A stretch of 64,000 bases of DNA from a virus (taxonomy: Duplodnaviria > Caudoviricetes), in the IMG/VR virus record IMGVR_UViG_3300037470_000569, positions 16,679-80,678 of that record. One strand, written 5' to 3'. The notes beneath the pieces were generated by a model. The model worked only from the letters and a program-made list of their open reading frames with translations, did not search any database and was not told the origin of the DNA. Numbering within the stretch: the stretch's first letter is position 1; the number at the start of each line of letters is the position of its first letter. Shown one piece after another: positions 13,076-61,861 of the stretch. The translations under genes were made by a program, and so were the position numbers.

Positions 13076-13084
13076 AACATCCTC

Positions 13085-13963: not shown

Positions 13964-13964
13964 A

Positions 13965-41776: not shown

Positions 41777-41824
41777 TAGAAACAACTAAGACACATAACC
41801 TCACATTTGAGGTCGAAAGGAGAT

Positions 41825-45123: not shown

Positions 45124-45126
45124 AAT

Positions 45127-45959: not shown

Positions 45960-46169
45960 ATGAAAATTTCACTGAGCGTCGACGGGAAAGTGTACGTCCA
46001 CATTCGTGAGACCTATCCGCGTGAGTCTAAGTACTACCGCTGGCTGATTCACGGACTCACTCAGCCGGGTTGGACTCGTAATAACGTCGGTTTCGCCTGG
46101 ACAAAGAAGGGAGCGATTCGAGCAGCAAAACGAGTCGCTCGCATAGCTGGAGTCGAGGTTCAGAGTTGA
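45960..46169 (+). CDS. Hypothetical protein
   Basis: Operon continuity. Confidence 0.55.
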   Translation: MKISLSVDGKVYVHIRETYPRESKYYRWLIHGLTQPGWTRNNVGFAWTKKGAIRAAKRVARIAGVEVQS

Positions 46170-47134
46170 GCTTATTCGTTGAAGTCGACGACATGCGGTT
46201 CGGTTATCGTGACCTCATTGATCGGGTCATACGTCACGGTAGCTGGACGAACCCGCGTGGTCGACGGACGCTCGAACTTTCTGATGTCTGCATCGCACTC
46301 CAGCAACCGACACACTCGGTGCCGATCGGAATTGGACGCAAGCTCAACCTTGCGGTCGCGTCCGCCGAATTTATCCAACTGCTGGGTGGCTACTCGGATG
46401 TGCACCAGTTAACAGCGATCCAGCCGCGATTCCTCGAGTTCACCGACGCTGGACGACTTCGTGGAGCATACGGTCCTCGACTTCGAACACAGTTACGACA
46501 GGTCGTGCGCCTGTTGCAGCGAGACCCCGCGTCTCGCCAAGCGGTTGTGAACCTGTGGCGCCATGACGAGCTGGAGACATCCAGTAGTGACGTTCCGTGT
46601 ACGCTCTCGCTCGGGTTTACGATCCGTGATGATGTACTGGATGCTCGTGTGACAATGAGAAGTTCCGACCTGTGGCTCGGAATCCCTTATGACTTTGCCC
46701 AGTTCACGGCACTCCAGCGTACTCTGGCTGCTGTGCTGAACGTTGGTGTTGGGTCATACACGCATACATCATGGTCACTTCATCTTTATGAAGAGCATCT
46801 CGAACTCGCTTCGCAGCTCACTACGCCGACTGACTGGTATGACTCGATGCCACCAGTCACCCTCGGCGTACCAATGATCGTAACTGAGCAGACTCCGGCC
46901 GACCTGGTTTGGCTCGCTACAGCAGATCACGCGCGTCGATTGGGGCTTAACCAACTGGAACCCGAGCAGGTGACTGCGGGCTCTCTGGTGCACCTGAAGC
47001 GGCTCTATCGGTACCAACCGGACCGCCGTTTCTGTTCGTGGTGTCACTATACATACTTACCATCCGAGTCTAAACATCCCAATGAGTGTCACGAGTGCTA
47101 TAAGCCACCAGTGTTTCATCGGGGTGGAGCATGA
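46166..47134 (+). CDS. Thymidylate synthase-fold enzyme, probably a dCMP hydroxymethylase/methylase
   Basis: AYGPRL, SRQAV, DVPCT, MRSSD, HLY; PYD (Asp) at the position of the ThyA PFN Asn. Confidence 0.85.
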   Translation: MSLFVEVDDMRFGYRDLIDRVIRHGSWTNPRGRRTLELSDVCIALQQPTHSVPIGIGRKLNLAVASAEFIQLLGGYSDVHQLTAIQPRFLEFTDAGRLRGAYGPRLRTQLRQVVRLLQRDPASRQAVVNLWRHDELETSSSDVPCTLSLGFTIRDDVLDARVTMRSSDLWLGIPYDFAQFTALQRTLAAVLNVGVGSYTHTSWSLHLYEEHLELASQLTTPTDWYDSMPPVTLGVPMIVTEQTPADLVWLATADHARRLGLNQLEPEQVTAGSLVHLKRLYRYQPDRRFCSWCHYTYLPSESKHPNECHECYKPPVFHRGGA

Positions 47135-47622
47135 CACTTTATCGTACTTCATGGGATGATACGTGGCTTGCAATTGCGCACTCGATTGCTCGACGTAGTC
47201 GCTGCACTCGTGGTCAGATCGGTGCAGTGGTTGTCGACCCACGCAACCGAGTCGTTGCGGTTGGGTACACGGGACCACCCGCGGGTTATCCCAATGAAGG
47301 TCCATGTAGCGACTTCTGTGAGCGTGCGCAGTATGGGCCACGCGCCGATACACTCAAGTCATATTCTGATTGCACAAGCATTCATGCGGAGCAGAACGCT
47401 TTACTCGTATGCGATCGAACAGATCGAGTTGGTGGTACGATCTACACCACAAGCGATGTATGCTGGGCTTGTGCGAAGATGATTGCCAACTCGGGACTCG
47501 CACGTGTGGTCGTCCAAGTCACGTACTCGGATCATCGTGATCCTGAGAAGTCATATGGCTTACTTGAAGATTGCGGTCTTGAAGTTAAGCTCGTGAAGGA
47601 GATTCGTGCCGGCACTGGATGA
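47131..47622 (+). CDS. dCMP deaminase
   Basis: SRCTRGQIGAV, HAEQNA, CWAC. Confidence 0.9.
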   Translation: MTLYRTSWDDTWLAIAHSIARRSRCTRGQIGAVVVDPRNRVVAVGYTGPPAGYPNEGPCSDFCERAQYGPRADTLKSYSDCTSIHAEQNALLVCDRTDRVGGTIYTTSDVCWACAKMIANSGLARVVVQVTYSDHRDPEKSYGLLEDCGLEVKLVKEIRAGTG

Positions 47623-49384
47623 CGTCAAGGTCACGAAGGTCGACACGTTCGCAGATGCTGAGCGTTGCATCCAGTGGTTAACCGACCTGGGTAATGGTGT
47701 TCTTGCCATAGACACCGAGACCACGGGTTTGAGACCACATGAGCACCACATCAGACTCGGGCAGCTCGGGGATGATAAGCAGGCGTGGGTGTTTGAGTGT
47801 GAGGGCAACCGGTCATGGGCCGGATTCTTCGTCGAGCTCATCAAGAAGTTCACAGGAACGCTTGTCGGGCATAATCTGAAATACGATGAGCGTGTCATTC
47901 GTAAGTGGTTGAACGTTCAACTTCCTCTCGAGCGTTGTCACGACACAATGCTGATGTCCAGGGTCGTAGAACCCACTCGCTCGGCAGCACTGAAGCGCCT
48001 CAGCTCGCAGTTGGTCGATCCCCGTGCAGCTGTACTGCAGTCTCAGCTAGATGATGCCATGAAGACCTCAGGTTTCGGCTGGGATACCGTTCCCTTGAGT
48101 TTCGAGATGTACTGGATGTATGCCGGCATTGACTGTGTACTCACTCGGCAGGTGTATGATATCCTCCACCCACGTACCATGGCTGAGGCTCCACGCGCTT
48201 ATGAGCTCGAGCTCGCTGTGTCGTCGGTTTGTGGGAAGATGGAAGATCACGGCATTCGCGTCGACACCGCACGTGCTGAGCAGAAGCACGATGAGCTGCT
48301 CAAGTACGTCGATGAACTCGCCACATACTGTCAGACGTACTACAACGTGCACCCTGGGAAGAACAAAGACGTCATTGAGTACCTCACCAACCAGGGGATC
48401 ACGTTCACAACCCTGACGAAGGGTGGTTCGATCGCGCTAGATGCTGAGGTGCTGGATGGCATTGATCACCCGCTCGCGAACCTCGTGCTCCAGCGTCGCA
48501 AAGCACAGAAGGTTGCTCGCACGTACTTGCGGCACTTCTTCGAGGATGTGGATGAGGATGATAGACTTCATCCGAGTGTAAATTTCGTGGCTGCGGAAAC
48601 CGGTCGCATGTCAATGAGCTCGCCAAACATGCAGAACCTCCCTCGTACAGACACGAATGAGCTTGCACAGCTCGTGCGATCTTGTGTTATCCCCGCGCCC
48701 GATCATACACTCGTATTCGCTGACTTCTCGCAGATTGAGTTCCGTCTCTTTGCTTCACTGAGTGAAGATCAAGATCTCATTCACGCATTCGATGCTGATG
48801 ACTTTTTCACTGAGATGGCTCGGGGGATCTTTAATGATCCGAACATTCAAAAGAAGGACCCCCGTCGACAAATCACTAAAAATGCAATGTATGCAACGAT
48901 CTATGGAGCAGGTGATAAGAAGTTCGCATGGACCGCGGGTATTAGTCTCTCTGAGGCGAAAGAGTTCATGGCACTTCTCAATCTTCGATTCCCAGCGATT
49001 AAGCAGCTCCAGCGTCGAATCACCGGTGAAGGCGAGCGTAACCTTCGTGAGACCGGCACGGCATCAGTGATGGGACCACTCTTTGGTCGTCGGTTCTCGA
49101 TCGATGACGATAAGATCTACAAGCTCGTCAATTTCATGGTGCAGGGAAGTGCGGCACAGGTCTTGAAATTGAAGTTGATCCAGCTCGCACAAGCGGGGTT
49201 ACAAGAATACTTAGTCATTCCTGTACATGACGAAGTTATCCTCGAAGTCCCCGACGGAATACTTCACGACGTCGTTCATACGGTGAGTGGCATCATGAAC
49301 GATAGTACGATGTTCGCGGTGCCGCTTGAGTCAGAGATCACGATCGGTAGTTCGTGGGGAACTAAGAGAGCTTATGCCCGCTAG
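47606..49384 (+). CDS. polA: DNA polymerase family A (3'-5' exonuclease + polymerase)
   Basis: IDTETTG, GHNLKYD, ETGRMS, DFSQIE, KNAMYATIYG, VHDE. Confidence 0.95.
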   Translation: MPALDDVKVTKVDTFADAERCIQWLTDLGNGVLAIDTETTGLRPHEHHIRLGQLGDDKQAWVFECEGNRSWAGFFVELIKKFTGTLVGHNLKYDERVIRKWLNVQLPLERCHDTMLMSRVVEPTRSAALKRLSSQLVDPRAAVLQSQLDDAMKTSGFGWDTVPLSFEMYWMYAGIDCVLTRQVYDILHPRTMAEAPRAYELELAVSSVCGKMEDHGIRVDTARAEQKHDELLKYVDELATYCQTYYNVHPGKNKDVIEYLTNQGITFTTLTKGGSIALDAEVLDGIDHPLANLVLQRRKAQKVARTYLRHFFEDVDEDDRLHPSVNFVAAETGRMSMSSPNMQNLPRTDTNELAQLVRSCVIPAPDHTLVFADFSQIEFRLFASLSEDQDLIHAFDADDFFTEMARGIFNDPNIQKKDPRRQITKNAMYATIYGAGDKKFAWTAGISLSEAKEFMALLNLRFPAIKQLQRRITGEGERNLRETGTASVMGPLFGRRFSIDDDKIYKLVNFMVQGSAAQVLKLKLIQLAQAGLQEYLVIPVHDEVILEVPDGILHDVVHTVSGIMNDSTMFAVPLESEITIGSSWGTKRAYAR

Positions 49385-49386
49385 AT

Positions 49387-49896
49387 ATGTGGAACTTGCG
49401 CTTTGAGCGCTACGGTCCTGCCCCCTGGATGTGTGGTTATTGCGATACGTTAATTCACCAATTTGGGAAAGATTCCGATGACGGACAAGTTCATCACATC
49501 GACGGTGATCATGAAAACGACGAACCAAGTAACTTAGCAATCATACATTGTGCTTGTCATACGAAGTTGCATCGTATCGGCTACAAGCATACTCAAGAAA
49601 CTCGCGATAAGATCGCAAATGCACATAAGGGTATATCTAAGTCACCCGAGCACATCGCTGCAATCAAAGCAAATCACGTGGGTATGTTAGGAAAGACACA
49701 ATCACCTGAAACACGTGAGAAGCAGTCAGCTGCACATCGCGGACGACCTAAGTCTGCTGAACATCGCGTACGTCTTTCTGAAGCAGCAAAGAATGAGCAA
49801 CGCTTTGAGTGTCCTTATTGTGATGCTGTGATGCGGAAACCTAATCTTGTACAGCACGTCAAAGCTAGACATGCACAAGATATCATCTCTCAATGA
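49387..49896 (+). CDS. HNH endonuclease with NUMOD3-like repeats
   Basis: VHHIDGDHENDEPSNL...CH; HTQETRDKI, SPETREKQS. Confidence 0.85.
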   Translation: MWNLRFERYGPAPWMCGYCDTLIHQFGKDSDDGQVHHIDGDHENDEPSNLAIIHCACHTKLHRIGYKHTQETRDKIANAHKGISKSPEHIAAIKANHVGMLGKTQSPETREKQSAAHRGRPKSAEHRVRLSEAAKNEQRFECPYCDAVMRKPNLVQHVKARHAQDIISQ

Positions 49897-49927
49897 ATTA
49901 CACTTGAACCTGATAAGGTAGACGTAG

Positions 49928-50422
49928 ATGATTGAGACACTGGTAACAACAGCTACACGTCCTAAGATCGTGATTGGTGTTGACCCGGGTACGAATACGG
50001 GTGTTGTGGTTTGGGACAATGAGAAACACTGTGTCCTCGCGCATATCGTCGATAAGCCGCAAGCAGTGTATGCTGCTCTTATTTCGACCACGCAAAGCAT
50101 GATTCATCAAGGCGTTCGACCCGTGTTGGTGATCGAACGGTTGGATCTCTCACAAGACACACTGCGAAAGACGCGTGCCGGTATCGACGATCTCATTCAC
50201 ATACTTGGCGCTACGTGGGCACTCGCTACATTCTTCAATCTCGAATATCACGAGGTTGGGCGATCTGACACGAAGAACTTCGCACATGACGAAGCACTCC
50301 AGCGTCGAGGCCTTTGGCTCGAGTCACGACATACCCGTGATGCATTGCGAGCTGTGATCACGTGGCTCGCAAGTCACGATAACGAATTCGCTAAGCGCTG
50401 GGCATTCACAGAAGACAACTGA
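49928..50422 (+). CDS. RuvC-like Holliday junction resolvase
   Basis: IGVDPGTNTG, VIE, HTRDA. Confidence 0.8.
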   Translation: MIETLVTTATRPKIVIGVDPGTNTGVVVWDNEKHCVLAHIVDKPQAVYAALISTTQSMIHQGVRPVLVIERLDLSQDTLRKTRAGIDDLIHILGATWALATFFNLEYHEVGRSDTKNFAHDEALQRRGLWLESRHTRDALRAVITWLASHDNEFAKRWAFTEDN

Positions 50423-50436
50423 GATGAGGAATTACG

Positions 50437-50766
50437 ATGACAACGAAGCAGCATGTCCTGACGTATCCGTGTCGAGGCACGCGCCACTGGATGGAGCAGG
50501 TCCCACGACCCGTTGACTGGGTCATGCCCGGTACGGATTACTGGCACGGTGCATGGGCAATCCTACACCTACGTTGTGCACGATGCCAGACCGAGCGGCA
50601 CATCGCACTCGACTACAACGGGTACATCCTCGCTGATAAGTACGATCACAGACCGCCGGGCTACAATCTGAAGAGTGGTGAAGCGCCGGCCAGAGAGCAG
50701 GTGCGTCTATGGTTGCTCGAAGACACACGTGACCGAAAGAAGCGGCGATTGAAGTCAGTGAAATAA
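50437..50766 (+). CDS. Hypothetical protein
   Basis: RBS GAGG; CARC..ERH motif. Confidence 0.6.
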   Translation: MTTKQHVLTYPCRGTRHWMEQVPRPVDWVMPGTDYWHGAWAILHLRCARCQTERHIALDYNGYILADKYDHRPPGYNLKSGEAPAREQVRLWLLEDTRDRKKRRLKSVK

Positions 50767-50768
50767 TC

Positions 50769-52601
50769 TTGGCACACGCCGATCACACAGCCGAACAAAT
50801 CACATTGCGAACTGATTGGACCGAGAAGGACCTCGCATCACAGGTACCTGGTCTGAACTATCGGTCGAGCGATGACTTGTGGTCAGGCCCTGCGACGTGG
50901 GGTGTGTTCGTTGCTCTGTGTGGAATCTTCCAGGGTACGAAGCAAGATGGCTCACCACGACTGACGCTCAGCCCTGAGCTTCACGCTTGGTATGTCGAAC
51001 GCTGGAGCTGGTACGCCGCATCGATCGACTTCCGTGACCGATTGACGTATGACGGCACGGGTCAGTTCGACCCGCGTCTCTATGATTTCCAGCGGGCGAG
51101 CGTTGCATATCACAACATCGTCAACACGGGTACAATTGGTACGATAGATACATCAGAAATGGGGACAGGCAAAAGTTGTATCACGCTTTCCACACTTCGA
51201 TATTGGGGTCTTGAAGATTCTCTTCCGGGTATTGTCATTTGCCCGAACTCAGTAAAGCATGTTTGGAATCATGAAGCTGCAATGTGGTTCCCTGACGCTA
51301 CTCCATACGTCATCGAAGGCTCAGCACTCCAGCGTCGTCAGCAATTTGCTGAGGCGCTCAAGGATCCGACCGCACTCGTGATACTGAACTTCGAGGCCGC
51401 GAAGATTCACTCGCGACTCGCTCCTTATGGTTCAGTCCGACTGACACGCTGCCGGGCGTGTGGTGGTGGTCACGATTCGACAGTGACTGCGGCTCGCTGT
51501 CAGGTGCATGACAAGGAACTTCAGAAGTTCAGCTTCAAGTCAGTGATCATCGACGAAGCTCACAAGATGAAGAATCCGCAAAGCCAGCAGACCCGAGCGT
51601 GCTGGGCAGTCCAGCATCAACCTAGCGTGAAGCATCGCATCTCGCTAACTGGCACGCCAATCGCCAACCATGTCGGCGACCTCTGGTCTCTACTTCACGG
51701 TGTTGCGCCCGATGACTTTGCTGTGAAGACGAAGTTCATCGATCGCTACGCGTTGATCGCGTGGAACCCCCAGGCAACACTGGACATCGTTGGTGTACGA
51801 CCCGACACACGCGGCGAGTTCGACCAGATCGTCGCACCTCGCTTCCGCCGAGTACTGAAGGCACAAGTGTTGACACAGCTTCCACCCAAGGTCCGCGAGA
51901 CACGACATGCACCCCTCACTCCGACGCAGCGGAAGCTCTATAAGCAGATGGAGAAGGATCTCCTCGTCACGTTCGAGGACAACGACGACGTTCTGATCGC
52001 ACCAAATAACCTAACGAAGGCTACCCGACTACTCCAGTTTGCATCGGCCAGCTGTACACTCGACGATGCTGGTCGGGTGTTACTCACAGCACCCAGCGCT
52101 AAGCTTGACGTTCTCGAAGAAATCCTCGGTGAGCTGGAGGGTAAGCAGATCGTGGTCTGCGCACTCTCACGACAGCTTATCGAGCTCGCGGCTGAACGTC
52201 TGACGAAGCTGGGTGTGTCACATCGTCTCGTGACGGGTAAGATCTCAGAGTACGATCGCGCCGATAACGTAAAGCTCTTCCAGGACGGTCACGTCCGCGT
52301 GCTACTCTTCACACTCGGCGCTGGAGGTACGGGCATCACGCTCACGGCAGCTGATACGATTGTGTTTCTCCAACGCTCGTGGTCACCGATCGATAACCGT
52401 CAAGCCGAAGATCGCGTGCACCGCATCGGATCAGAGCGGCACGAGACGGTCACTATCATTGACATCGTCGCACCTGGTACGATCGAGATCCGACAACTCG
52501 AGAGCCTAAGACGTAAGCTCGATCAGCTCGAAGACATCGTGCATGACCGCGAAGCCCTACTTCGAACGCAGACACTTCCCGAGATAGAGGACATCACATG
52601 A
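50769..52601 (+). CDS. SNF2-family helicase
   Basis: EMGTGKS, DEAH, LTGTP, QAEDRVHRIG. Confidence 0.92.
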   Translation: MAHADHTAEQITLRTDWTEKDLASQVPGLNYRSSDDLWSGPATWGVFVALCGIFQGTKQDGSPRLTLSPELHAWYVERWSWYAASIDFRDRLTYDGTGQFDPRLYDFQRASVAYHNIVNTGTIGTIDTSEMGTGKSCITLSTLRYWGLEDSLPGIVICPNSVKHVWNHEAAMWFPDATPYVIEGSALQRRQQFAEALKDPTALVILNFEAAKIHSRLAPYGSVRLTRCRACGGGHDSTVTAARCQVHDKELQKFSFKSVIIDEAHKMKNPQSQQTRACWAVQHQPSVKHRISLTGTPIANHVGDLWSLLHGVAPDDFAVKTKFIDRYALIAWNPQATLDIVGVRPDTRGEFDQIVAPRFRRVLKAQVLTQLPPKVRETRHAPLTPTQRKLYKQMEKDLLVTFEDNDDVLIAPNNLTKATRLLQFASASCTLDDAGRVLLTAPSAKLDVLEEILGELEGKQIVVCALSRQLIELAAERLTKLGVSHRLVTGKISEYDRADNVKLFQDGHVRVLLFTLGAGGTGITLTAADTIVFLQRSWSPIDNRQAEDRVHRIGSERHETVTIIDIVAPGTIEIRQLESLRRKLDQLEDIVHDREALLRTQTLPEIEDIT

Positions 52602-52693
52602 ATGTCGATTGGCCCATAGCTATTGTACTCACCGTGCTGATCTTGACACTCGGCACGATCGCACTAGCCCTCATCATGAACCCGAAGAAGTAG
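52598..52693 (+). CDS. Small membrane peptide (31 aa)
   Basis: RBS GAGG; ATGA coupling. Confidence 0.5.
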   Translation: MNVDWPIAIVLTVLILTLGTIALALIMNPKK

Positions 52694-52701
52694 GGAGTTC
52701 T

Positions 52702-54246
52702 ATGTCTGACTTCACCGGTGAGCAGGTGCTCGCGGTGCGTAAGAGTCTCAAGTTGAGCCGTGAGAAGTTTGCCGCTCAAGTCGGACTCACTCCCGCGAAG
52801 CTACACAACATCGAAACCGGCAAGCGCGCCATGCGCCCTGAGGAACGCGCAGCACTTGCGGTGGTCATGACCGGTGACCGCATCGCACTGGCACCCGATC
52901 CACTTCCTAAAGTACCGAGTGTCGCACAGACATTCCCCGTCGGTACCAACGGCACCTTCATCTATCTCGATGAAATCGACGGCGTTGATGATACGCTGTG
53001 GTTGGACATTCTCAATCATCCGAACTTCGGTGATACGAGTGCGCTACTCCAGCAACCCGAGGTGATCACCGAGCTGGAGGCCGAGCGAACTCATGCCGCA
53101 CGTGTCGCCGAGCTCGTTCAACATCTCTCACCGACGTCAATCGAGGCGCGTGCGGTACTCGTTGGATCACTCACACCAGAGCTGTGGCAAGTGGCAAGTG
53201 ATCAAGATGCTCGTATTGGTGTCGCAGGTCTTTACACCGAAGATGGCCAGCGGCGGATTACGAACTCCGAGCTGCAGACATTCAAACATTGCCGACGTAA
53301 GTGGTGGTTGGGTTGGTATCGAGGCCTTGCACCACGTGCTCAGTCACAGACTGGACCGCTCGCAATTGGCACGCGCATTCACGAAGCGTTGGCCGCGTAC
53401 TATGTACCCGGCTGGCAAGGTACTCGTCCCGAGCAGGCACTGGAGGACGCGCTACTCCGCGACGAAACGACGCTCATTGGGCAGCTTGCTGAGTTCGAAG
53501 CAGACCCGGCTACCCAGCGTTTGCTCGACTTTAAGAAGGAAGCTGACCTCGCACGTGCGATGATCGAGGGTTATGTCCAGTGGATCTCTGAGACTGGTGC
53601 CGATCAAGGGTATGCGGTGATTCAGTCAGAGCGTACACTCACGACGAGCATCGAGACTCCCAGCGATGACACGCCTAACATTCAACTAGGCGGGACAGTC
53701 GACGTTCAGCTCCAGCGTGAGCATGACGACGCTGTGCTTTGGATGGATCATAAGACGACACAGAGCTTCGGACAGCTCACACGTATGCTCCTATGGGATG
53801 AGCAGATGCAGCACTACCACGTGTTAGAGGAGGGAAACCGACCAGAAGTCGTCGCGGACGACATCGCTGACGGTGTACCATTGGTCGACGGTGCTCTCTA
53901 CAACATGCTCCGCAAGGTCAAGCGGACAGCTACTGCTAAGCCGCCGTTCTACGAGCGTGTCGAGGTTCGGCACAATCCTCACCAGGTCAGCAACTTCAAG
54001 CGGCGACTCGTGGGTGAGACACTGCAGGTCATGCAGGTCGAACGTTCACTTCAGGAGGGCGTCGGACACCAACTTGCTGTGTATCCCAGCCCAAGTACTC
54101 GGTGTCTTTGGGGCTGTGAATTCAGTGCAGTGTGTCCGAGCTTCGACGATAATTCACGTGCCGAGGATTTTGTGAAAGATCACTTTGTCACGCTTAACCC
54201 ACTTCGTCGTTATGATGATCGCGTGAGCATGAATGAAGAAAGTTGA
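52702..54246 (+). CDS. XRE-HTH fused to a Cas4-like PD-(D/E)xK exonuclease
   Basis: LSREKFAAQVGLTPAKLHNIETG; CRRKWW, GTRIHEAL, GTVD..WMDHKT, Q..HY, C.WGCEF..VC. Confidence 0.85.
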   Translation: MSDFTGEQVLAVRKSLKLSREKFAAQVGLTPAKLHNIETGKRAMRPEERAALAVVMTGDRIALAPDPLPKVPSVAQTFPVGTNGTFIYLDEIDGVDDTLWLDILNHPNFGDTSALLQQPEVITELEAERTHAARVAELVQHLSPTSIEARAVLVGSLTPELWQVASDQDARIGVAGLYTEDGQRRITNSELQTFKHCRRKWWLGWYRGLAPRAQSQTGPLAIGTRIHEALAAYYVPGWQGTRPEQALEDALLRDETTLIGQLAEFEADPATQRLLDFKKEADLARAMIEGYVQWISETGADQGYAVIQSERTLTTSIETPSDDTPNIQLGGTVDVQLQREHDDAVLWMDHKTTQSFGQLTRMLLWDEQMQHYHVLEEGNRPEVVADDIADGVPLVDGALYNMLRKVKRTATAKPPFYERVEVRHNPHQVSNFKRRLVGETLQVMQVERSLQEGVGHQLAVYPSPSTRCLWGCEFSAVCPSFDDNSRAEDFVKDHFVTLNPLRRYDDRVSMNEES

Positions 54247-54643
54247 TCCTCGACGTCGACGTCACGTTAAGTATCTTATCGTTAAAGCAATAAAAAGTGG
54301 GGATCTCATCCCCGCTGACCAATGTGAGATGTGTGGTGCGCCACCACCACGTAATCGTCGTCTTGACGGTCATCATCATAACGGTTATGATGATGATCAC
54401 GTACTTGATGTCCAATGGCTTTGTCGTCGATGTCATGCATCGATTGAGGGCCACTATGGTGGGAGTGCGCGGAATGAATGGACACAAGAACGTCGAGTTG
54501 AAGCAGCGCGTAAAGCAGGTCTTGCGTCAGGTCGTGATGGGCGATCCCGTAGTGAAATCGCAAAAGCAGCGAGCATAGAAGGTCAAAAGAAGATAACACA
54601 CGATGCGCTTGGCCGATTTCAATCTGCGAACCTGATAGATTAA
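54233..54643 (+). CDS. HNH-type endonuclease
   Basis: CEMCG...GHH..GY...DVQWLCRRCH. Confidence 0.75.
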   Translation: MKKVDPRRRRHVKYLIVKAIKSGDLIPADQCEMCGAPPPRNRRLDGHHHNGYDDDHVLDVQWLCRRCHASIEGHYGGSARNEWTQERRVEAARKAGLASGRDGRSRSEIAKAASIEGQKKITHDALGRFQSANLID

Positions 54644-54675
54644 GACCACCACGTTCGAAAGGGTTCACACTACTT

Positions 54676-55455
54676 GTGACCGTACCTCTTTCAATACTCA
54701 TTCACGCGTTCTCGAAGGTCGGTAAGACCACGCTCGCGGGAACGTGTCCTCCGCCTGTTCTCTTCTTCGATGCTGAAGGTCGAACGCGGTTTCTTCCCAG
54801 TGCAAGCAACGTGACGGCAATGTACGGACGACCCGTGCGCCTCACACACTGGGTACCTAGTGGACCACCGCCTCTCTACGATGGGACGTGGGATATCTGC
54901 GTTGTCCAGTGTAATGACTGGATAACGGTTGAGAGAGCGTATCAATGGCTCACACAAGGGCAGCATCATTTCCAGTCGCTCGTGGTCGACTCAATCACCG
55001 AGATCCAGCGGCGTTGTCGTGAAGCGCTTGAGAATACCGGCGGCTTCGAGCATTGGGGCGCACTTCTCGAGCGCATGTCACGGATCATTCGTGGTCTCCG
55101 TGACCTAACACTTCACCCTCTTCGTCCACTAGCTGTCGTGATGTTCATTGCCGAGACACGGCAGCGCGGTGACAGTGGTAAGTGGAAACCTTCAATGCAA
55201 GGGCAGATTGAGACCGCTTTGCCCTACTGGATGGACGTCATCGGGTATCTTTACAAAGAGAACACGATGGATGCACATGGGCAGCCAACCGGACCCGAGG
55301 TTCGAAAGCTGCTCATCACACAACACCCTCTTTATGAAGCGGGTGAAGCAGTACAGGGCGTCTTAGGCGACGTCATCCTCGACCCGAACGTCTATGTGAT
55401 GCATCAGACGTTGAATCAAGCCTTCGGGCTCAGCACACATGGAGAACCGACTTGA
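54676..55455 (+). CDS. AAA_24/Sak4-like ATPase recombinase
   Basis: SKVGKT, FFDAEG, VVDSITE, IGYL. Confidence 0.8.
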   Translation: MTVPLSILIHAFSKVGKTTLAGTCPPPVLFFDAEGRTRFLPSASNVTAMYGRPVRLTHWVPSGPPPLYDGTWDICVVQCNDWITVERAYQWLTQGQHHFQSLVVDSITEIQRRCREALENTGGFEHWGALLERMSRIIRGLRDLTLHPLRPLAVVMFIAETRQRGDSGKWKPSMQGQIETALPYWMDVIGYLYKENTMDAHGQPTGPEVRKLLITQHPLYEAGEAVQGVLGDVILDPNVYVMHQTLNQAFGLSTHGEPT

Positions 55456-56321
55456 CCGTCATCAACTTCCAGCAGGCGCTCGCCCAAGCGAGTACCGTCA
55501 GTTTCGACCCGCTGCCCGACGGCACTTACGACCTCGTCTGCACCGAGACGAAGCCGACGGACAGCTCTACCGGAAAGCCCATGATCCGCACGAAGTACCG
55601 CGTGGAGACTGGACCGCACGCGGGCAAGACGGTGTTCAATCAGTATGTGTTCTCGCCCGATAGCCCGACCGCACTGGCGATCTTCTTCCGACACATGGCG
55701 TTTCACGGTCTCGACACGCAGTTCTTCAACGGACAGCCAGCGTGGGAGCAGGTCGCCGCGACGTTGGTGAACCGACGGGTGCGCATGGAGCTCGGTACCC
55801 GGATGTGGCAGGGTCAGCCGCGCAACGAGGTCAATAACGTCATGCCGCCCGATGCCCAGGCCGCCGGTCAAATGGCTATGCAACCCGGTCCCGTCGGCGC
55901 ACCGGCCGTTGCGCCTCCCACTATGATTGCTCCGATCGTTCCCAGCCCAATGGCAGCTCCTGCCCCAGCACCGATGCCGGTGATGCCTGCTCCGACGATG
56001 CCGCCTCCGATCGCCCCTGGTCCCGTGGCGCCGCCCATGCCTCAGGTTCCTGCGCCAGCTCCGATGCCGGCTCCGGCTCCAGTCGCACCAGCCCCGATCG
56101 CTCCTGCTCCCGTGGCTACTCCCGTGGCTCCGACTCCTGTGGCTCCGGCCGCTCCGGCGGCTCCTCCCGGTTGGGCGTTCGTCAATGGTCAGTGGGTTCC
56201 CGAGACTCCGGCGCCGGCCCCGCAAGGCCCGGTCACACCTCCGACGCAGGCATTCGAGCAGCCGTACACTCCGCCGGCTGAGGCCCCTCAGGTGCCGCCC
56301 CCGCCACCCATCCCCAGCTAG
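55452..56321 (+). CDS. DUF669-type ssDNA-binding protein with Pro/Ala-rich tail
   Basis: FDPLPDGTY...STGKPMI...GPHAGKTVF; follows the Sak4-like gene. Confidence 0.8.
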   Translation: MTVINFQQALAQASTVSFDPLPDGTYDLVCTETKPTDSSTGKPMIRTKYRVETGPHAGKTVFNQYVFSPDSPTALAIFFRHMAFHGLDTQFFNGQPAWEQVAATLVNRRVRMELGTRMWQGQPRNEVNNVMPPDAQAAGQMAMQPGPVGAPAVAPPTMIAPIVPSPMAAPAPAPMPVMPAPTMPPPIAPGPVAPPMPQVPAPAPMPAPAPVAPAPIAPAPVATPVAPTPVAPAAPAAPPGWAFVNGQWVPETPAPAPQGPVTPPTQAFEQPYTPPAEAPQVPPPPPIPS

Positions 56322-56362
56322 GATATAGGCGACAAACCCCCGATCACAGGAGATCGAACTCA

Positions 56363-56770
56363 ATGACCATTCGTAGGTTCGCTGCGCTGGCGTTCACTGC
56401 TGCTTTCACCTTTGCTGGTATCTTCATGCTTTCCAGTGGTGAGCCGGCAGGTGCATGTCAGTATGGCTGCCAGCCCACAACGACATGTGCACCGACGACC
56501 ACTACCACGACTGTCCCGGCATCGACCAGTACGACGGCGCCTCCGACAACTGTGACGGTGCCGTCGACGATCGTCGTTCCTATCACTGTGCCTGTCCCTA
56601 TCACCGTCCCTGTTCCCGTGTTCGTCCCTGTGACGGTCCCCGTCGAAACTCCTCAGGTCGAGACCGCTGACGTCAACGTGACTCAGTTCGTGGAGAACCC
56701 GACGACCGTGATCGAACGTCGAGTGTCGGTACCCGTCGCCGTGACGGCTACACCGCGATTCACCGGCTGA
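56363..56770 (+). CDS. Secreted Thr/Pro/Val-rich protein
   Basis: Signal peptide; PITVPV repeats; ends TPRFTG. Confidence 0.65.
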   Translation: MTIRRFAALAFTAAFTFAGIFMLSSGEPAGACQYGCQPTTTCAPTTTTTTVPASTSTTAPPTTVTVPSTIVVPITVPVPITVPVPVFVPVTVPVETPQVETADVNVTQFVENPTTVIERRVSVPVAVTATPRFTG

Positions 56771-56785
56771 TCGAAGGAGTACATC

Positions 56786-58117
56786 TTGCGAGTGGGGTAT
56801 TGCAAGCTTGGGCGTAGCATGCCCCTCGACCCGAGCGCTTGGGGAGTAGTAGGCGGAGATGATGAACCACCGCTGCTCCTCAAGACGCTCGCGCTCGCTC
56901 ATCCCGAAGTTGAGTGGGTGATCATAGGTCGAAACTCGGGTGAAAAGCCCATGGACGTTGGACTCCCCAGTAACGTCACCAACCCCTGGGTAGACATCCT
57001 ACCCAATCTGAAGGCCGACCTTCGTCAAGCGAAAAGCACACTTGAAAAGATCGCAATCTACGACCAATATACACTTGACCTCTTTCGCAACGTCGATGAA
57101 CTCGTGATTTGGACGGGTCAGCACGGTACAAGCAATTCACCAATTCCGAAGGTTGGAGCGGGTTGGGATGATGTCACCCAGCCACAAGAGGCATTTGTCA
57201 ACTACGCTTCATACGCGGTGAGAGGTATCAACGCCTTCCGTCAGATTGACCCACTGAGCCGTGAAGAGATCTGGCTCTGTCCCGATCCTCGCAACTACCT
57301 CAAGTGTCGTGATCTGAAGTGGCCACCGTTGCACCCGGTACTGGGTCAGTTCGACTTCACTCGGACCGATAAGCACGAGCGCTACACCGACACGCGGTCG
57401 CCCGAGGAATGCGGGTTCAGCGACGCCGTGACGAAAGTCGATGGCAACGTTTGGACCGCGCATCACGAGTACATCTACTCACAGCTCGAGATTTGCGGCA
57501 TCCTTCCTGAGCACGTGAACGCCGAGTTCTCTGGCGACTTCTACGGTCGTCGACAATTCGGTCTATTCATTAATGAAGCTCGGTCGTATGTGAAGCACAA
57601 TCGACTAGATGCACTTACTCAGTTCGTGCTGCCGCTCCAGCCCGACTTCATTCACGGGAAGTGGACACCCGCGTCACAGGAGACGATCACAACTCTCGGT
57701 GGTCCAGTCATCCAGCCCGCTCCTGCCGAAGCATATTACGACCTACTCCGCAGCGTGAAGTGTACCTTCACAACGCCATCCAGTGGCTCAGGTTGGGCAA
57801 CGACGAAGCCATGGCAATCTTTCGCTACGGGAACCATCTGCTTCTTTCATCCTGAGTATGATACGCAGGGGCATATCATTCCGACAAAGGATCAGGTGGA
57901 AGCCTGGGAGTCCAGCGTCGGAATCGATGACGAGCGCATTCATCTCGCTAAGTGGTTGCGGGTTGATTCACCTGATGAACTTCGAAAGAAGGTCGACGCT
58001 GTGTCATCCAGTCCCGATACGTGGGCGTGGTTGGCAACGACGCAGCGCAGACTATACGATAAAGCTTGCAATGAACGACGCATAATCAAGCTGATCGAAG
58101 AGAGGCTGCGCCTGTGA
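56786..58117 (+). CDS. GT-B glycosyltransferase, T4 beta-glucosyltransferase-like (candidate DNA GT)
   Basis: C-terminal TKPWQSFATGTICFFHPEYDTQGHII...VDSPDELRKKV resembles T4 BGT as recalled from memory. Confidence 0.65.
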   Translation: MRVGYCKLGRSMPLDPSAWGVVGGDDEPPLLLKTLALAHPEVEWVIIGRNSGEKPMDVGLPSNVTNPWVDILPNLKADLRQAKSTLEKIAIYDQYTLDLFRNVDELVIWTGQHGTSNSPIPKVGAGWDDVTQPQEAFVNYASYAVRGINAFRQIDPLSREEIWLCPDPRNYLKCRDLKWPPLHPVLGQFDFTRTDKHERYTDTRSPEECGFSDAVTKVDGNVWTAHHEYIYSQLEICGILPEHVNAEFSGDFYGRRQFGLFINEARSYVKHNRLDALTQFVLPLQPDFIHGKWTPASQETITTLGGPVIQPAPAEAYYDLLRSVKCTFTTPSSGSGWATTKPWQSFATGTICFFHPEYDTQGHIIPTKDQVEAWESSVGIDDERIHLAKWLRVDSPDELRKKVDAVSSSPDTWAWLATTQRRLYDKACNERRIIKLIEERLRL

Positions 58118-59160
58118 TAGATAAGAAGGTCGCACTCATCACGACCACCATCAACGTTCCCACCGTACTGGAACGGTACGTGATTGACTGGAAGCGCGAC
58201 TCCGACGAAGATCTCGAGATCATTGTGGCCGGCGATGTTCAAACCCCGACTGAGGCTCAGGAGTACGTCGAAGAGACGCTCGACGGCGCATACATCGGTA
58301 TTAACACGCCAAACGCGACGCGTTGGCGAAGCCATGATGTTATCGGTCTTCGCTCAATTCAGCGCCGCAACCTCGCTCTACTTCACGCCATTTCAATCGG
58401 CGCTGATGTGATCATCACGGTTGACGACGATAACTCGCCGAGCGAGCACTATGTGCGACGCATGCTTGATGAGTTGTATTGCGCGCGTCAATCTTTGTGG
58501 ACTTCACCTAACGGTTGGTTCAACCCGGGCGGTCTACTCAGCCCGCCAACCTGGGCTCGTGGCTTCCCAATTCATGAGCGATCGACTACACCAGGCGTGA
58601 TGCTCGGTGTTCGTGGGCCGACTGATGTTGATTCAGTTGCGGTGGTCAATGGTTTAACCACCGGTGATCCTGATGTTGACGCATTCGAGCGACTTGCGAA
58701 TAAGCCATGGGCGACACACGTGATGGCTAGTCAGAACATGGTGCTCAATGCTGGCACATGGGCACCGATCAATACGCAGAACACGGGATTCGTACGCATC
58801 GTCGCGCCACTCTTTCAGGTCATGTGCGGTGTCGGTCGGTACGATGATATCCTCGCATCGTACGTTGCTCGTGCTGTGTTTGATTCATTTCACGTGCATG
58901 TCAGCTATGGTCACCCGACGACGCACTCGGTGCGCAATGAGCACAACCTCATCACCGATCTCGAACGTGAGCTGTTCGGTTACCGAATCACACTCGAGTT
59001 CTGCGAGCGACTACGCTCGGCGACGATGGTCGGTAGTGTCGTCAACCGACTTGCTGATGCATATGAACTCGTGAGAGATCTGCTGCCAGCTCATACCCAA
59101 GATGCGAATGATGTGTGGATTGACGACGTCAACACCGCACTCAAAGAGGGAGATCATTGA
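58114..59160 (+). CDS. RGP/STELLO-like GT-A protein (NDP-sugar mutase-like)
   Basis: ITTTINVP, RRNL.LL.A, TVDDDN, GDPDVDA, NTQNT, GRYDDI. Confidence 0.7.
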   Translation: MIDKKVALITTTINVPTVLERYVIDWKRDSDEDLEIIVAGDVQTPTEAQEYVEETLDGAYIGINTPNATRWRSHDVIGLRSIQRRNLALLHAISIGADVIITVDDDNSPSEHYVRRMLDELYCARQSLWTSPNGWFNPGGLLSPPTWARGFPIHERSTTPGVMLGVRGPTDVDSVAVVNGLTTGDPDVDAFERLANKPWATHVMASQNMVLNAGTWAPINTQNTGFVRIVAPLFQVMCGVGRYDDILASYVARAVFDSFHVHVSYGHPTTHSVRNEHNLITDLERELFGYRITLEFCERLRSATMVGSVVNRLADAYELVRDLLPAHTQDANDVWIDDVNTALKEGDH

Positions 59161-60173
59161 TGACCAAACGCAATGTTCTTGTGACCGGAGCCGGTGGATT
59201 CATCGGCGGTCACCTCGTGAAGCGACTGCTTGCGGAGGGTGATTACGTCACAGCAGTCGACATCAAGGGCCTCGACCAGTGGCACCAGGTGCATGAAGTG
59301 GGGAACGTCGACTACTTCGATCTAAGCAGCATAAGCACAGCACTTAAGCTGCAGGAGTATCGCTTCGACGAGGTGTTCCAGCTTGCTGCTGATATGGGCG
59401 GTATGGGCTTCATCGAGACCAACAAACTCGAGTGTATGCTCACAGTGCTGACGACGACGAACGTGCTCATGTTGGCCAATGTGGCAGGTTGGGGTCGAGT
59501 CACATACGCCTCCAGTGCATGTGTATATCCCGGGTACATGCAGAACGACCCGATGAATATGAGTTCTCAGCGCTGGATGCTCGCCGAGGGTGATGCTTAT
59601 CCGGCCGATCCCGAGGATGGGTATGGCTGGGAAAAGCTCTTCGGTGAGCGGATGCACCGACATTTCCGTGAGGATCGCAACCTCGATACTCGTGTGGTAC
59701 GGTTTCACAATGTCTACGGACCACATGGTTCCTGGACAGGTGGACGTGAGAAGGCGCCCGCCGCGTTGTGTCGGAAAGTTGCGCACGCCAAGCTCACCGG
59801 CACCACCGAGGTTGAGGTCTGGGGCGATGGTACTCAACTTCGTTCGTTCTGCTACGTCGACGACGCGGTCGAAGGCATGCTCCGAGTCGGTCGTGGCGCT
59901 TACGTTGATGCAGTGAACGTCGGCAGTGCAGAGCTCGTGTCAGTCAATGATCTGCTCGATGTGATCACATTCATCGCTGACTATGATGTCTCGCCGAAGT
60001 ACATCCCGGGACCACTCGGCGTCAAGGGTCGCTCCAGTGATAACACGCTCATCAAGGAGCTATACGGCTGGGAGCCGTCGATCCCCTTCACCAACGGCAT
60101 GCGAAAGACGTACGACTGGGTCGAAGAGCAGGTCCAGCGTGAACTCGAACTTGGAGGAGAACGACTGCGATGA
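59160..60173 (+). CDS. GDP-mannose 3,5-epimerase-like SDR
   Basis: GAGGFIG, LAADMGGMGFI, SSACVYP, YGWEKL, GGREKAPAALCRK. Confidence 0.85.
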   Translation: MTKRNVLVTGAGGFIGGHLVKRLLAEGDYVTAVDIKGLDQWHQVHEVGNVDYFDLSSISTALKLQEYRFDEVFQLAADMGGMGFIETNKLECMLTVLTTTNVLMLANVAGWGRVTYASSACVYPGYMQNDPMNMSSQRWMLAEGDAYPADPEDGYGWEKLFGERMHRHFREDRNLDTRVVRFHNVYGPHGSWTGGREKAPAALCRKVAHAKLTGTTEVEVWGDGTQLRSFCYVDDAVEGMLRVGRGAYVDAVNVGSAELVSVNDLLDVITFIADYDVSPKYIPGPLGVKGRSSDNTLIKELYGWEPSIPFTNGMRKTYDWVEEQVQRELELGGERLR

Positions 60174-60652
60174 GTGACCATTGGTCTTGGCTCGGATCAA
60201 CCCGAGAGCTTCAAGAGCAATACTTCAACGTTGACTACGATGAGTTCAAACGGAATGGTCTGAAGCTCGCCGACTACTTTCGCGTCCAGGCACTCTCAAT
60301 CAACTGTGAAGTGATTGAGTTCCTCGATGAGGTCAACTGGAAGCCGTGGTCTGACGACGCACCAGGTGATGTTCCCGACCGTGATGCGGCTGTCAGCGAG
60401 TTGATCGACGCCGCGCACTTCCTCGCCAATCTCGCCTGTGTGCTTGGTGTCACTGACGAGGAGTGGGAAGCGAAGTACCAGGCGAAGCAGGAACGTAACC
60501 GCGAACGTCAGCGGAGCGGTGAGTACACCCGTGCGAAGTACAAGTGTCCCAAGTGCGCTCGCGAGCTTGATCGACCAGGTGCGGTGCAGCCGAAAGACAA
60601 TGAGTTCATTTGCAATGGCTGTGGTACGCAGGTTGAAGTCCTGAGCGCCTAG
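60170..60652 (+). CDS. All-alpha dUTPase/dCTPase (MazG-like)
   Basis: E..EFLDEVNWKPW, ELIDAAHF, Y..K..RN.ERQ. Confidence 0.8.
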   Translation: MSDHWSWLGSTRELQEQYFNVDYDEFKRNGLKLADYFRVQALSINCEVIEFLDEVNWKPWSDDAPGDVPDRDAAVSELIDAAHFLANLACVLGVTDEEWEAKYQAKQERNRERQRSGEYTRAKYKCPKCARELDRPGAVQPKDNEFICNGCGTQVEVLSA

Positions 60653-60664
60653 TAGAACTACTCC

Positions 60665-61861
60665 GTGACACTTCGCGCAGTGGACGTCATGGGGTTCGCC
60701 GGGGGTTTCACTCTCGGTACCGTCCAGGCAGGCTTCAAGCTTGTCGGAAAGCGAGAACTGAAGGGTGCCTTCGGTGGACCGAATTGTCTGGCGAATCGAC
60801 ACCTATTGGGTGACGACTGGGAACTACAAGAGGGCGACGAAACTACCTGGGACCCTGTAGATGCAGAGTACATATTCGGAAACCCGCCTTGCTCAGGGTT
60901 CTCGCTTATGTCTCGCAGTGACTTCCGAGGCGTCGACTCACCAGCCAATAAATGCATGTGGTCACTAGTCAGCTACGCCGCTCGAGTGCGTCCGTACGTG
61001 ATCGCATTCGAGTCCGTTCAGCAGGCATACACCGGTGGTCGGCCGCTGATGCAGTCGCTCGTCCAGTGGCTCCGTGAAGCTACTGGTCTCGACTATCACT
61101 TGTGGCACGTCAAGCACAACAACCTCGCGCTTGGAGGCTGTGCCGAACGGCGACGCTACTTCTTCGTCGCATCACGGATTCCATTCGGCGTCGAACGACC
61201 GCGACTCCGTAGCACTCCGACCCTCTGGGATGCGATCGGGGACCTCGAGTCATCCTCAGTCACCTGGGAACGGCAGCCGTATCGGACTGGACCCAGTCGC
61301 TGGGCGACTCCGTTGCGGGACGATTCGGGGTCCTTTGATGGTCACGCCATTCGGATCACTCCGGAGTTCCGGCGTGCCATGGATCTGCTTCCGATTGCCG
61401 GACCCTGGGCTCACCGTGAGAGCATTTCAGATGTCGCGAAGCGCTACCATAACCTCACGGGAACGCTTCCACCGTCTTGGGAGTACCGTCGAGAGAAGCT
61501 GCTTAACAACGACTTTCACCTGGGCTTTCATCAGCTCGTACGCTGGGACCCGACGAAACACGCTCGCGTCATCACGGGCGGCGCGCTCCAGCTAGTACTT
61601 CACCCGTACCTCGACCGCACGCTCACGCATCGCGAGGCAGCTCGCATCATGGGATACCCTGATAACTGGAACGTCTACTCACTCCGCAAGTACTCTCAAC
61701 TTCAAGCGACCTGGGGGAAAGGGATACCTTGTGGTAGTGGTCGCTGGCTTTCTTCATGGGTAAGACGCTCACTGCTCGGATCACCCGGGGAACTCACTGG
61801 TGAGGTGATTGGCGATCGCGAGCGACTGATCGACCTGACGAAGGTTGAACTCACTACCTAG
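60665..61861 (+). CDS. DNA cytosine-C5 methyltransferase
   Basis: FAGG, GNPPCSGFS, ESV, R.R.FFV, LTHREAARIMGYPD. Confidence 0.8.
   Translation: MTLRAVDVMGFAGGFTLGTVQAGFKLVGKRELKGAFGGPNCLANRHLLGDDWELQEGDETTWDPVDAEYIFGNPPCSGFSLMSRSDFRGVDSPANKCMWSLVSYAARVRPYVIAFESVQQAYTGGRPLMQSLVQWLREATGLDYHLWHVKHNNLALGGCAERRRYFFVASRIPFGVERPRLRSTPTLWDAIGDLESSSVTWERQPYRTGPSRWATPLRDDSGSFDGHAIRITPEFRRAMDLLPIAGPWAHRESISDVAKRYHNLTGTLPPSWEYRREKLLNNDFHLGFHQLVRWDPTKHARVITGGALQLVLHPYLDRTLTHREAARIMGYPDNWNVYSLRKYSQLQATWGKGIPCGSGRWLSSWVRRSLLGSPGELTGEVIGDRERLIDLTKVELTT

Follow-up and report, generated by a model that had tools for sequence, protein, structure and literature searches.

The replication gene array of the uncultured virus represented by the IMG/VR record IMGVR_UViG_3300037470_000569 (Duplodnaviria; Caudoviricetes) raises the question of whether this phage replaces cytosine in its DNA with a glycosylated base and, if so, where the sugar comes from. 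The window analyzed here is a stretch of 64,000 nucleotides, bases 16679-80678 of the 80,678-bp record, which is rated 99% complete; coordinates refer to the window unless indicated otherwise. A sequence-only reading of this window assigned a thymidylate synthase (TS)-fold gene, a GT-B glycosyltransferase (GT), an RGP/STELLO-like protein, an epimerase resembling GDP-mannose 3,5-epimerase (GME) and an all-alpha NTPase to a pathway in which 5-hydroxymethylcytosine (5hmC) or a related base is glycosylated with a donor built by the phage itself, and proposed to compare three of these proteins with gp42, beta-glucosyltransferase (BGT) and gp56 of phage T4. Each of these genes lies where it had been placed, on the plus strand, every in silico comparison gave the predicted result, and the overall proposal is supported. 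It appears on balance likely that some or all of the cytosine is converted to 5hmC prior to replication and then glycosylated on the DNA with a self-made donor. The product would be 5hmC carrying L-galactose, probably in the L-galactofuranose form.

Predicted Cytosine-Modifying Enzymes

The TS-fold protein contains MRSSDLWLGIPYD, and PDB alignments set the Asp of this segment against the Asn of the PFN motif of ThyA, in agreement with the replacement seen by eye. In PDB, the protein is most similar to the CMP hydroxymethylase MilA (2e-18), with ordinary thymidylate synthases at 1e-14 or weaker, and the NCBIfam thymidylate synthase equivalog models all score well under their cut-offs (e.g., 74 vs 327 bits). 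In an alignment of this protein with seven homologs from related viral contigs (n = 8), the invariant positions include C145 (ThyA C146) in a P-C-T context, D142 (ThyA L143), D168 (ThyA D169) in M-R-S-S-D, and D176 (ThyA N177) in G-I-P-Y-D. According to a recent study (Lee et al., NAR 2026, PMC13326640), in the numbering of Escherichia coli ThyA, Asp in place of N177 (N177D) selects cytosine, an acidic residue replacing L143 accompanies a hydroxymethyl instead of a methyl product, and D169N is the mark of the newly found 5-hydroxy-dCMP synthases. The Asp at the N177 position is common to the phage protein, MilA and T4 gp42, the Asp at the L143 position is the same in T4 gp42, and the combination of N177D and L143D with a retained D169 matches both T4 gp42 and MilA. 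The signature of 5-hydroxy-dCMP synthases of the RB69 gp48 type, Asn at D169, was not found, D168 being invariant in the family. Comparison of the family with T4 gp42 yielded an hhalign probability of 96.5%, with Asp at both diagnostic positions. Because of the invariant Cys and Asp positions and the alignment with gp42, the predicted product is 5hm-dCMP rather than dTMP, 5-methyl-dCMP or 5-hydroxy-dCMP, and the enzyme is, judging from these signatures, very likely a dCMP hydroxymethylase. The C-terminal zinc-ribbon-like tail of this protein (CxxC...CxxC, 47030-47134) is not shared by the other seven aligned sequences.

The gene for dCMP deaminase directly follows the TS gene and is translationally coupled to it in all relatives checked; the overlap in this phage is 4 nt.

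The NTPase belongs to the all-alpha dimeric d(C/U)TPase family. The WKPW and ELIDxxHF motifs that had been noticed are present within NWKPW and SELIDAAHF, and the acidic metal-binding motifs and W-K-x-W of the family are represented by E47, E50, E54, W57, K58, W60, E77 and D80, all of them invariant. The comparison with the T4 dCTPase/dUTPase gp56 gave an hhalign probability of 98.5% (E 3e-15), the alignment reaching through the C-terminal RQxxGY; the family profile also matches solved dimeric dUTPases (1.9e-11 for the Campylobacter jejuni dUTPase). This protein has a C-terminal zinc ribbon as well (60540-60652, CxxC...CxxC), in which C126, C129 and C148 are invariant in the family.

Predicted Origin of the Sugar Donor

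Family score and catalytic residues both identify the epimerase as a true GDP-mannose 3,5-epimerase. It matches the plant enzyme with an E-value of 8e-87, compared with 1e-22 at best for any other short-chain dehydrogenase/reductase (SDR), and keeps the equivalents of S143, C145, Y174, K178, N203, K217, R243 and R306 (residue roles from PMC8787198), among them the S/Y/K triad of extended SDRs. Retention of the C145/K217 acid-base pair and of the acidifying R306 sets GM35E apart from GalE and from GMER (GDP-fucose synthase).

The RGP/STELLO-like protein is a homolog of glycosyltransferase family GT75, and its nearest characterized relative is the GDP-L-galactose mutase MtdL, which converts GDP-L-galactopyranose to GDP-L-galactofuranose (PMC9937993). 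The profile of the phage family matches MtdL over its full length (3.7e-55) and the plant UDP-arabinopyranose mutase at 1.5e-6; many of the homologs have precomputed Pfam RGP or STELLO matches. The DXD motif of the GT-A core (DDD, residues 104-106) and R149 in R-G-F-P, at the conserved arginine that is auto-glycosylated in GT75 proteins, are invariant in the phage family, as are the equivalents of MtdL R159, D195, Q229, R257, D260 and R289, and the H292 equivalent is present in all but one copy; R257, R289 and H292 bind phosphate in MtdL. The product of the epimerase is the known substrate of MtdL, and the presence of a true GME next to an MtdL-like protein strengthens the earlier guess of a self-supplied sugar other than glucose. 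These similarities make it fairly likely that the donor is derived from L-galactose; the furanose form of the sugar can be proposed tentatively.

The Putative DNA Glycosyltransferase

The 443-residue GT shows no match in Pfam, PHROGs, NCBIfam or, in phmmer searches, the sequences of PDB entries, and was placed by structure prediction only. The AlphaFold2 model, built on 17 homologs (pLDDT 83.4, pTM 0.84), solidly assigns the protein to the GT-B fold, and two independent structure searches put T4 BGT on top, as had been anticipated. In the Foldseek search of PDB, BGT was the top match (8.6e-8) and BGT entries took five of the first seven ranks. With VIA-align, BGT also came first (Z 22.0, rmsd 3.6 Å, 311 of 333 residues), followed by the next fold at Z 19.1, with the T4 alpha-glucosyltransferase at 16.8 and the glycosyltransferase of phage HY126 at 16.3. 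Among the predicted viral structures of BFVD, the second-ranked match is named 'DNA beta-glucosyltransferase' (1.9e-19). Sequence similarity is low, with about 12-14% identity to BGT and a weak hhalign match (63%, E 7e-5) confined to approximately 70 C-terminal columns, where the invariant K-P-W-(E/Q) of the phage family is opposite the R-V-W-E of BGT. The latter stretch presumably includes UDP-contacting residues. Given the fold neighbor and the genomic context, DNA is the probable acceptor of this enzyme.

Net charge was considered as a proxy for DNA binding and found to be uninformative, with pI values of 5.6-9.1 across the family. A tblastn search for relatives in isolated phages produced a single match, in an unannotated Pseudoalteromonas phage (24.5% identity), and there is no cultured model. 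The gene directly upstream of that for the GT encodes a protein with a hydrophobic segment at its N terminus and, in addition, a long mucin-like region; this protein was set aside as a candidate acceptor of the GT because it is not conserved in the relatives. In one relative (L021), the corresponding place is occupied by a gene for a 99-residue MazG-like protein.

Locus Organization and Conservation Among Relatives

The plus strand carries an unbroken run of early and replication genes that starts at 44196 and continues as far as the window extends. These encode, in order, the protein with the N-terminal domain of dATP/dGTP diphosphohydrolases, the TS homolog, dCMP deaminase, family A DNA polymerase (PolA), an HNH endonuclease, a RuvC-like resolvase, an SNF2 helicase, a PD-(D/E)XK nuclease, a second HNH endonuclease, an AAA_24 ATPase, a DUF669 protein resembling single-stranded DNA-binding proteins, the Thr/Pro-rich membrane protein, the GT, the GT75 protein, the epimerase, the NTPase and a C5-cytosine methyltransferase (Table 1). 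The sugar/NTPase unit is thus located within the replication module. In the sequence-only reading, the whole set was described as one tightly coupled block. This holds for the GT, GT75, GME and NTPase genes, where each neighboring pair overlaps by 4 nt, but not for the TS and GT genes, which are 9.6 kb apart and are separated by the genes for PolA, SNF2, PD-(D/E)XK, AAA_24 and DUF669 proteins, so that the coupled block is limited to the four-gene unit.

Table 1. Predicted genes of the modification pathway, followed by other features of the genome.
Feature	Position	Strand	Evidence or remark
TS-fold enzyme, predicted dCMP hydroxymethylase (T4 gp42-like)	46166..47134	+	Pfam PF00303 1e-27
dCMP deaminase	47131..47622	+	PF00383 7e-17
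443-aa GT-B, predicted DNA (5hmC) glycosyltransferase nearest T4 beta-glucosyltransferase	56786..58117	+	structure model
GT75 (RGP-type) NDP-sugar pyranose/furanose mutase homolog	58114..59160	+	phmmer vs MtdL 1e-29
GDP-mannose 3,5-epimerase	59157..60173	+	PDB 8sg0 8e-87, 2c59 3e-86
All-alpha dimeric d(C/U)TPase-family NTP pyrophosphatase, T4 gp56-like	60170..60652	+	PF08761 (dUTPase_2) 4e-9; phrog_18650 dUTPase 2e-18
C5-cytosine DNA methyltransferase, array end	60665..61861	+	PF00145 1e-15
108-aa protein, N-terminal domain of dATP/dGTP diphosphohydrolases	44797..45123	+	PF18909 1e-18
Family A DNA polymerase with 3'-5' exonuclease	47606..49384	+	PF00476 1e-64, PF01612 3e-17
135-aa protein, N-terminal hydrophobic segment and long Thr/Pro/Val-rich mucin-like region	56363-56770	+	directly upstream of GT
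Two HNH-type endonuclease genes	49387-49896 and 54233-54643	+	inserted in replication array
Second sugar cluster: GT2 (218 aa), 306-aa protein, 275-aa extended-SDR epimerase/dehydratase	12171-15478	-	
ADP-ribosylglycohydrolase, among minus-strand genes	34821-35726	-	PF03747 1e-62
Ro60/TROVE protein with vWA domain	41807-43528		PF25045 1e-63, PF05731 8e-35
DUF932 protein	L002:525-1652 (genome 525-1652, ahead of window)		PF06067 2e-30

A pattern scan of IMG/VR identified 17 loci with a homolog of the GT (39-73% identity). All 17 have the same order, namely SNF2, PD-(D/E)XK, AAA_24, DUF669 (optional), GT and GT75 (in either order), an optional SDR gene, NTPase and C5-methyltransferase, and the TS, deaminase and PolA genes are found upstream wherever the flank is long enough; the gene order is also present in one more contig. 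In a large protein collection, there are 712 homologs of the GT and 720 of the GT75 protein. Nearly all of those among the matches listed are unnamed metagenomic proteins, and the longest contigs are mostly of phage size (55-106 kb).

The SDR slot of the locus shows clear-cut variation. In six genomes, including this one, it encodes an epimerase of the GM35E type, with Cys and Lys at the acid-base pair; in nine, the enzyme is of a GalE/MoeE5-like 4-epimerase type and the two residues are Ala and Gln; and four genomes lack an epimerase. Since the relatives swap or lack the epimerase, the sugars made on this common scaffold probably differ within the family. The position of MtdL S86, which the authors of the MtdL study linked to nucleotide choice and which is Ser in the GDP-specific MtdL, is Ser in 6 of 6 GT75 copies paired with the GME type and in 1 of 9 paired with the 4-epimerase type. 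This pattern hints that the GT75 protein works on the product of the epimerase, and can be taken as a hint only, the sample being small and the sequences related. The more specific scheme, in which L-galactofuranose is placed on 5hmC and the sugar is diversified among relatives by epimerase swaps upstream of a conserved mutase/transferase pair, is rather speculative.

Proposed Pathway

Under the proposed scheme, the gp56-like pyrophosphatase, assigned by fold and family, would convert dCTP (and dUTP) to the monophosphate, the preference for base being conjectural. The TS homolog would then hydroxymethylate dCMP, as its signatures suggest, while dCMP deaminase would supply dUMP to the thymidylate synthase of the host. 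Phosphorylation of 5hm-dCMP, the weakest step, would depend on a kinase, probably that of the host given that the phage encodes none, and the phage PolA, which would need to accept the modified dNTP, would incorporate the product. GDP-L-galactose would be supplied by the phage's own GDP-mannose 3,5-epimerase, and the GT75 homolog would probably contract it to GDP-L-galactofuranose in the manner of MtdL, an activity that is less certain than the homology. Finally, the BGT-like GT-B enzyme is expected to move the sugar onto the 5-hydroxymethyl group; here the fold is established by the model, whereas both acceptor and donor are putative.

The Missing Kinase and the C5-Methyltransferase

Neither a PF02223 search, nor a Walker-A scan, nor tblastn with the kinases of distant and nearest relatives detected a nucleotide kinase in the whole 99%-complete genome, so that the absence previously noted for the window extends to the entire genome. 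In the Walker-A scan of all open reading frames (ORFs), P-loops were found only in the AAA_24 ATPase and in one SprT-like protein. In the relatives, a P-loop protein of the thymidylate kinase type (about 310 aa) is encoded directly upstream of TS in 11 of 11 readable loci, including the nearest one, and its C-terminal third has no Pfam match. The corresponding position (L024:1124-2439 in the nearest relative) is occupied here by the PF18909 protein and a 106-residue ORF (44797-45447 together); the latter (45127-45447) shows no kinase features. The published cytosine-hypermodifying phages likewise have a thymidylate-kinase-like gene beside the TS gene (PMC13326640). With no kinase found, this phage encodes no recognizable enzyme for converting 5hm-dCMP to its triphosphate: the step could be taken over by a host kinase or by an unrecognized protein, or the pathway could be defective.

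The C5-methyltransferase, which the sequence-only reading did not discuss, is conserved across 15 homologs without any change in motifs I (FAGGF), IV (NPPCSGFS), VI (FESV), VIII (RxRYF), IX and X, with E-S-V instead of E-N-V in motif VI and P-C-S instead of P-C-Q in motif IV. An enzyme of this type cannot act on 5-substituted cytosine, which speaks against full replacement of cytosine and in favor of either partial replacement or another role of the methyltransferase. No TET/JBP dioxygenase (PF12851) was detected in the genome even at E <= 1. In the absence of such an enzyme, the post-replicative route to hmC is not available and the methyltransferase is without a link to hmC. Five of the 15 aligned methyltransferases (L007, L011, L012, L017 and L018; six loci if L013, a duplicate of L012, is counted) are longer at the C terminus by about 110-155 aa, a segment without any match in Pfam.

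Alternative Explanations

Several observations weigh against the proposed pathway. All of the evidence is computational and the activities are predicted. Of the three sugar-site aspartates of MtdL (D87, D195 and D260), the phage GT75 proteins keep D195 and D260 and lack D87, which is replaced by Ile (Thr in three) in 19 of 19 copies. The column of the Mn-binding H287 contains Ser in this phage, where the preceding residue is a His, and Gln in most relatives, although a local shift of the alignment is possible. GT-B folds are widespread, while the hhalign probability between the GT and BGT is just 63%, and the GT is acidic (pI 5.6) compared with T4 BGT (pI 9.05). There is a separate, second sugar cluster in the same phage. 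Cultured cyanophages possess GT75 and GME-like genes in islands of the surface-polysaccharide type with no DNA link, so these enzymes need not concern DNA when found in phages. All relatives checked have the kinase that is not recognizable here, and the C5-methyltransferase is the best-conserved gene of the array (51-77% identity, n = 15), with its catalytic motifs intact.

The absence of D87, and apparently also of H287, casts real doubt on the mutase assignment, and for this reason a second-transferase explanation is retained, albeit as an unlikely one. The base would still be 5hmC, but the GT75 protein would be a second glycosyltransferase, of the GT-A type, or a self-glycosylating protein, and the DNA would contain L-galactopyranosyl- or L-gulosyl-hmC, possibly a disaccharide, with no furanoside. 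The D87N and D87S substitutions abolish the mutase activity of MtdL, and the inactivity of AtRGP5 is accompanied by loss of the H287 equivalent. Furthermore, the GT75 family has a GT-A fold, a DXD motif and glycosyl-transfer activity of its own, and the four relatives without an epimerase keep both the GT and the GT75 protein. This explanation has to contend with the conservation of the proposed nucleophile R159 together with D195, D260, Q229, R257, R289 and the DDD motif, all invariant, and of H292 in all but one copy; moreover, the characterized bacterial relatives are mutases only, and the enzyme naturally paired with GDP-L-galactose in known biology is a mutase of the MtdL type.

A slightly less probable alternative, also unlikely, detaches the GT/GT75/epimerase unit from DNA altogether and assigns it to glycosylation of the virion or host envelope or to auxiliary metabolism, with the TS homolog, deaminase and NTPase merely remodeling nucleotide pools or giving unglycosylated hmC. 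Precedents come from cyanophages: a GT75 homolog of Synechococcus phage S-T4 (34% identity, 2e-32) is encoded amid heptose, cytidylyltransferase and glycosyltransferase genes, and GME-like epimerases of about 41% identity are present in 37 cyanophage records. The acidic GT would fit this explanation, and the conserved synteny could mirror a merely collinear phage family. However, the closest solved and predicted structures of the GT are DNA glucosyltransferases and not envelope enzymes, and the unit is translationally coupled to the gp56-like NTPase within the replication module rather than located among structural or lysis genes. The GT2/SDR cluster at 12171-15478 would be available for surface or virion glycans, and the Thr/Pro-rich protein upstream of the GT is absent from the relatives.

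It is very unlikely that the adjacent deaminase yields 5hm-dUMP and that hydroxymethyluracil (hmU) is glycosylated, in a manner resembling base J, leaving cytosine to the C5-methyltransferase. The TS-deaminase coupling in every relative would agree with this scheme, which would also explain the retention of an intact methyltransferase, and the NTPase family is equally close to dUTPases. We know of no precedent for deamination of 5hm-dCMP toward glycosylated hmU, and in T4 a dCMP deaminase coexists with hmC. The TS homolog has the cytosine-specifying Asp, whereas hmU-making phages use Asn-type dUMP hydroxymethylases (PMC13326640). Last, an ordinary thymidylate synthase that provides dTTP together with the deaminase and a dUTPase, a common phage trio, with no base replacement, is highly improbable because, even though this is the sole TS-fold gene and ThyX is missing from the genome, every aligned family member has Asp at the N177 as well as the L143 position, and the equivalog scores are far under the cut-offs.

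Comparison With Known Systems

A close parallel to the proposed 5hmC glycosylation pathway is the glucosyl-hmC pathway of T4. Remote homologs of gp42, gp56 and BGT and a dCMP deaminase (cd in T4) are all present, and the logic, hmC formed before replication and glycosylated afterwards on the DNA, would be the same. Unlike T4, this phage has no gp1-type or other dNMP kinase, and its donor is predicted to be a phage-made GDP-L-sugar, whereas T4 uses the UDP-glucose of the host. It also differs in having a family A polymerase, an actinophage-like affiliation, a C5-methyltransferase instead of Dam, and a 443-residue GT with the low identity to BGT given above.

Phages RB69, DLP3 and RL38JI, with arabinosyl- or galactosyl-5-hydroxycytosine (PMC13326640), resemble the present system in the dCMP-acting TS homolog and the GT-B DNA glycosyltransferases; in the same study, phage synthesis of a furanose nucleotide-sugar was established for the first two of these phages and proposed for the third. 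Their thymidylate-kinase-like gene beside TS is matched only in the relatives of this phage. In contrast, their TS homologs have D169N and yield 5-hydroxy-dCMP, whereas D169 and the hydroxymethylase signature are kept here, and their donors are UDP-Araf, made by an isomerase, a kinase and a uridylyltransferase, or UDP-Galf, made by a flavin-dependent UDP-galactopyranose mutase, not a GDP-sugar derived via GME and a metal-dependent GT75 protein.

Contraction of GDP-L-galactopyranose to the furanose by a GT75 enzyme, as predicted here, is found in the A201A antibiotic pathway (MtdL; PMC9937993), which, however, leads to a small-molecule natural product of an actinomycete rather than to DNA; the phage clade, in addition, is without D87 and apparently without H287. 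Reliance of a DNA GT on an adjacent nucleotide-sugar epimerase for its donor, with a C5-methyltransferase next to the GT, has been described for the clusters of C5-methyltransferase, 5mYOX (TET) and GT genes (bioRxiv 10.1101/2023.12.21.572611). These differ from the locus described here, which has no TET/JBP dioxygenase and in which hmC would stem from the nucleotide pool via the TS homolog.

Thus, TS-derived modified cytosine with GT-B transferases and phage-made furanose donors, including UDP-galactofuranose as proposed for RL38JI, have already been published (PMC13326640), and so have partner epimerases as donor suppliers (bioRxiv 10.1101/2023.12.21.572611). Full-text literature searches that paired phage with GT75 or arabinopyranose mutase returned nothing that apparently ties this family to DNA modification, and one on phage DNA modification with GDP-mannose 3,5-epimerase returned no paper with the epimerase term. 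What is new is the prediction, for another lineage of phages, of a gp42/gp56/BGT-type pathway whose donor derives from GDP-L-galactose, and the DNA of this phage may contain a base modification not yet described.

Restriction Sites, Host and Additional Genes

The sites that had seemed abundant by eye show no marked avoidance in the 80,678-bp genome, their counts being within about 13% of the Markov expectation: GATC occurs 592 times (observed/expected ratio, O/E, 0.95), CTCGAG 72 times (O/E 1.13) and GTCGAC 62 times (O/E 0.95). The O/E values of 4-bp palindromes are 0.71-1.12, and the median for 6-bp palindromes is 0.91 compared with 1.00 (SD 0.21) for all hexamers. This near-absence of palindrome depletion is weakly compatible with protected DNA.

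The host is probably an actinobacterium, judging from gene relationships: the closest isolates by polymerase sequence are actinobacteriophages (about 35% identity). The host marker WhiB was not found in this genome and is encoded by one relative. Actinobacteria make plentiful GDP-mannose for their envelope, which would suit the proposed precursor. A megablast search with the 15.7-kb region gave no match to isolated phages. The contig comes from a sediment metagenome and, among public sequencing runs, the stretch is present in only two sediment metagenomes, as assembled contigs.

The two HNH genes in the replication array are probably mobile; their position is not conserved among relatives, apart from L003, where a single weak HNH match lies at another place in the locus. 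The minus-strand cluster of GT2, a 306-residue protein and an extended SDR is a candidate for virion or envelope glycosylation; homologs of the GT2 protein are found in four relatives a few kb past the methyltransferase, two of which also have the 306-residue protein. The DUF932 gene carries the plus-strand array on across the ends of the record, and in relative L021 the same gene comes after the methyltransferase.

Implications

Should L-galactofuranose indeed be placed on 5hmC in this lineage, the pathway would be without precedent in DNA modification in its L-sugar, in its GDP-linked donor and in its use of a metal-dependent GT75 mutase. An L-hexofuranose would be added to the known DNA chemistries, the role of GT75 would extend beyond plant cell walls and antibiotic biosynthesis, and the T4 paradigm would reach phages of soil and sediment that probably infect actinobacteria. 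Two concrete puzzles on the completeness of base replacement are the lack of a kinase and the retention of the C5-methyltransferase. Glycosylated cytosines are a main means by which phages evade restriction enzymes, CRISPR nucleases and modification-dependent defenses, and each new sugar alters the set of defenses that are effective and of laboratory enzymes able to read or cut the DNA. Given the size of the family, with about 700 metagenomic homologs, and its variable epimerase slot, these phages offer a natural series for the co-evolution of donor supply and transferase specificity.

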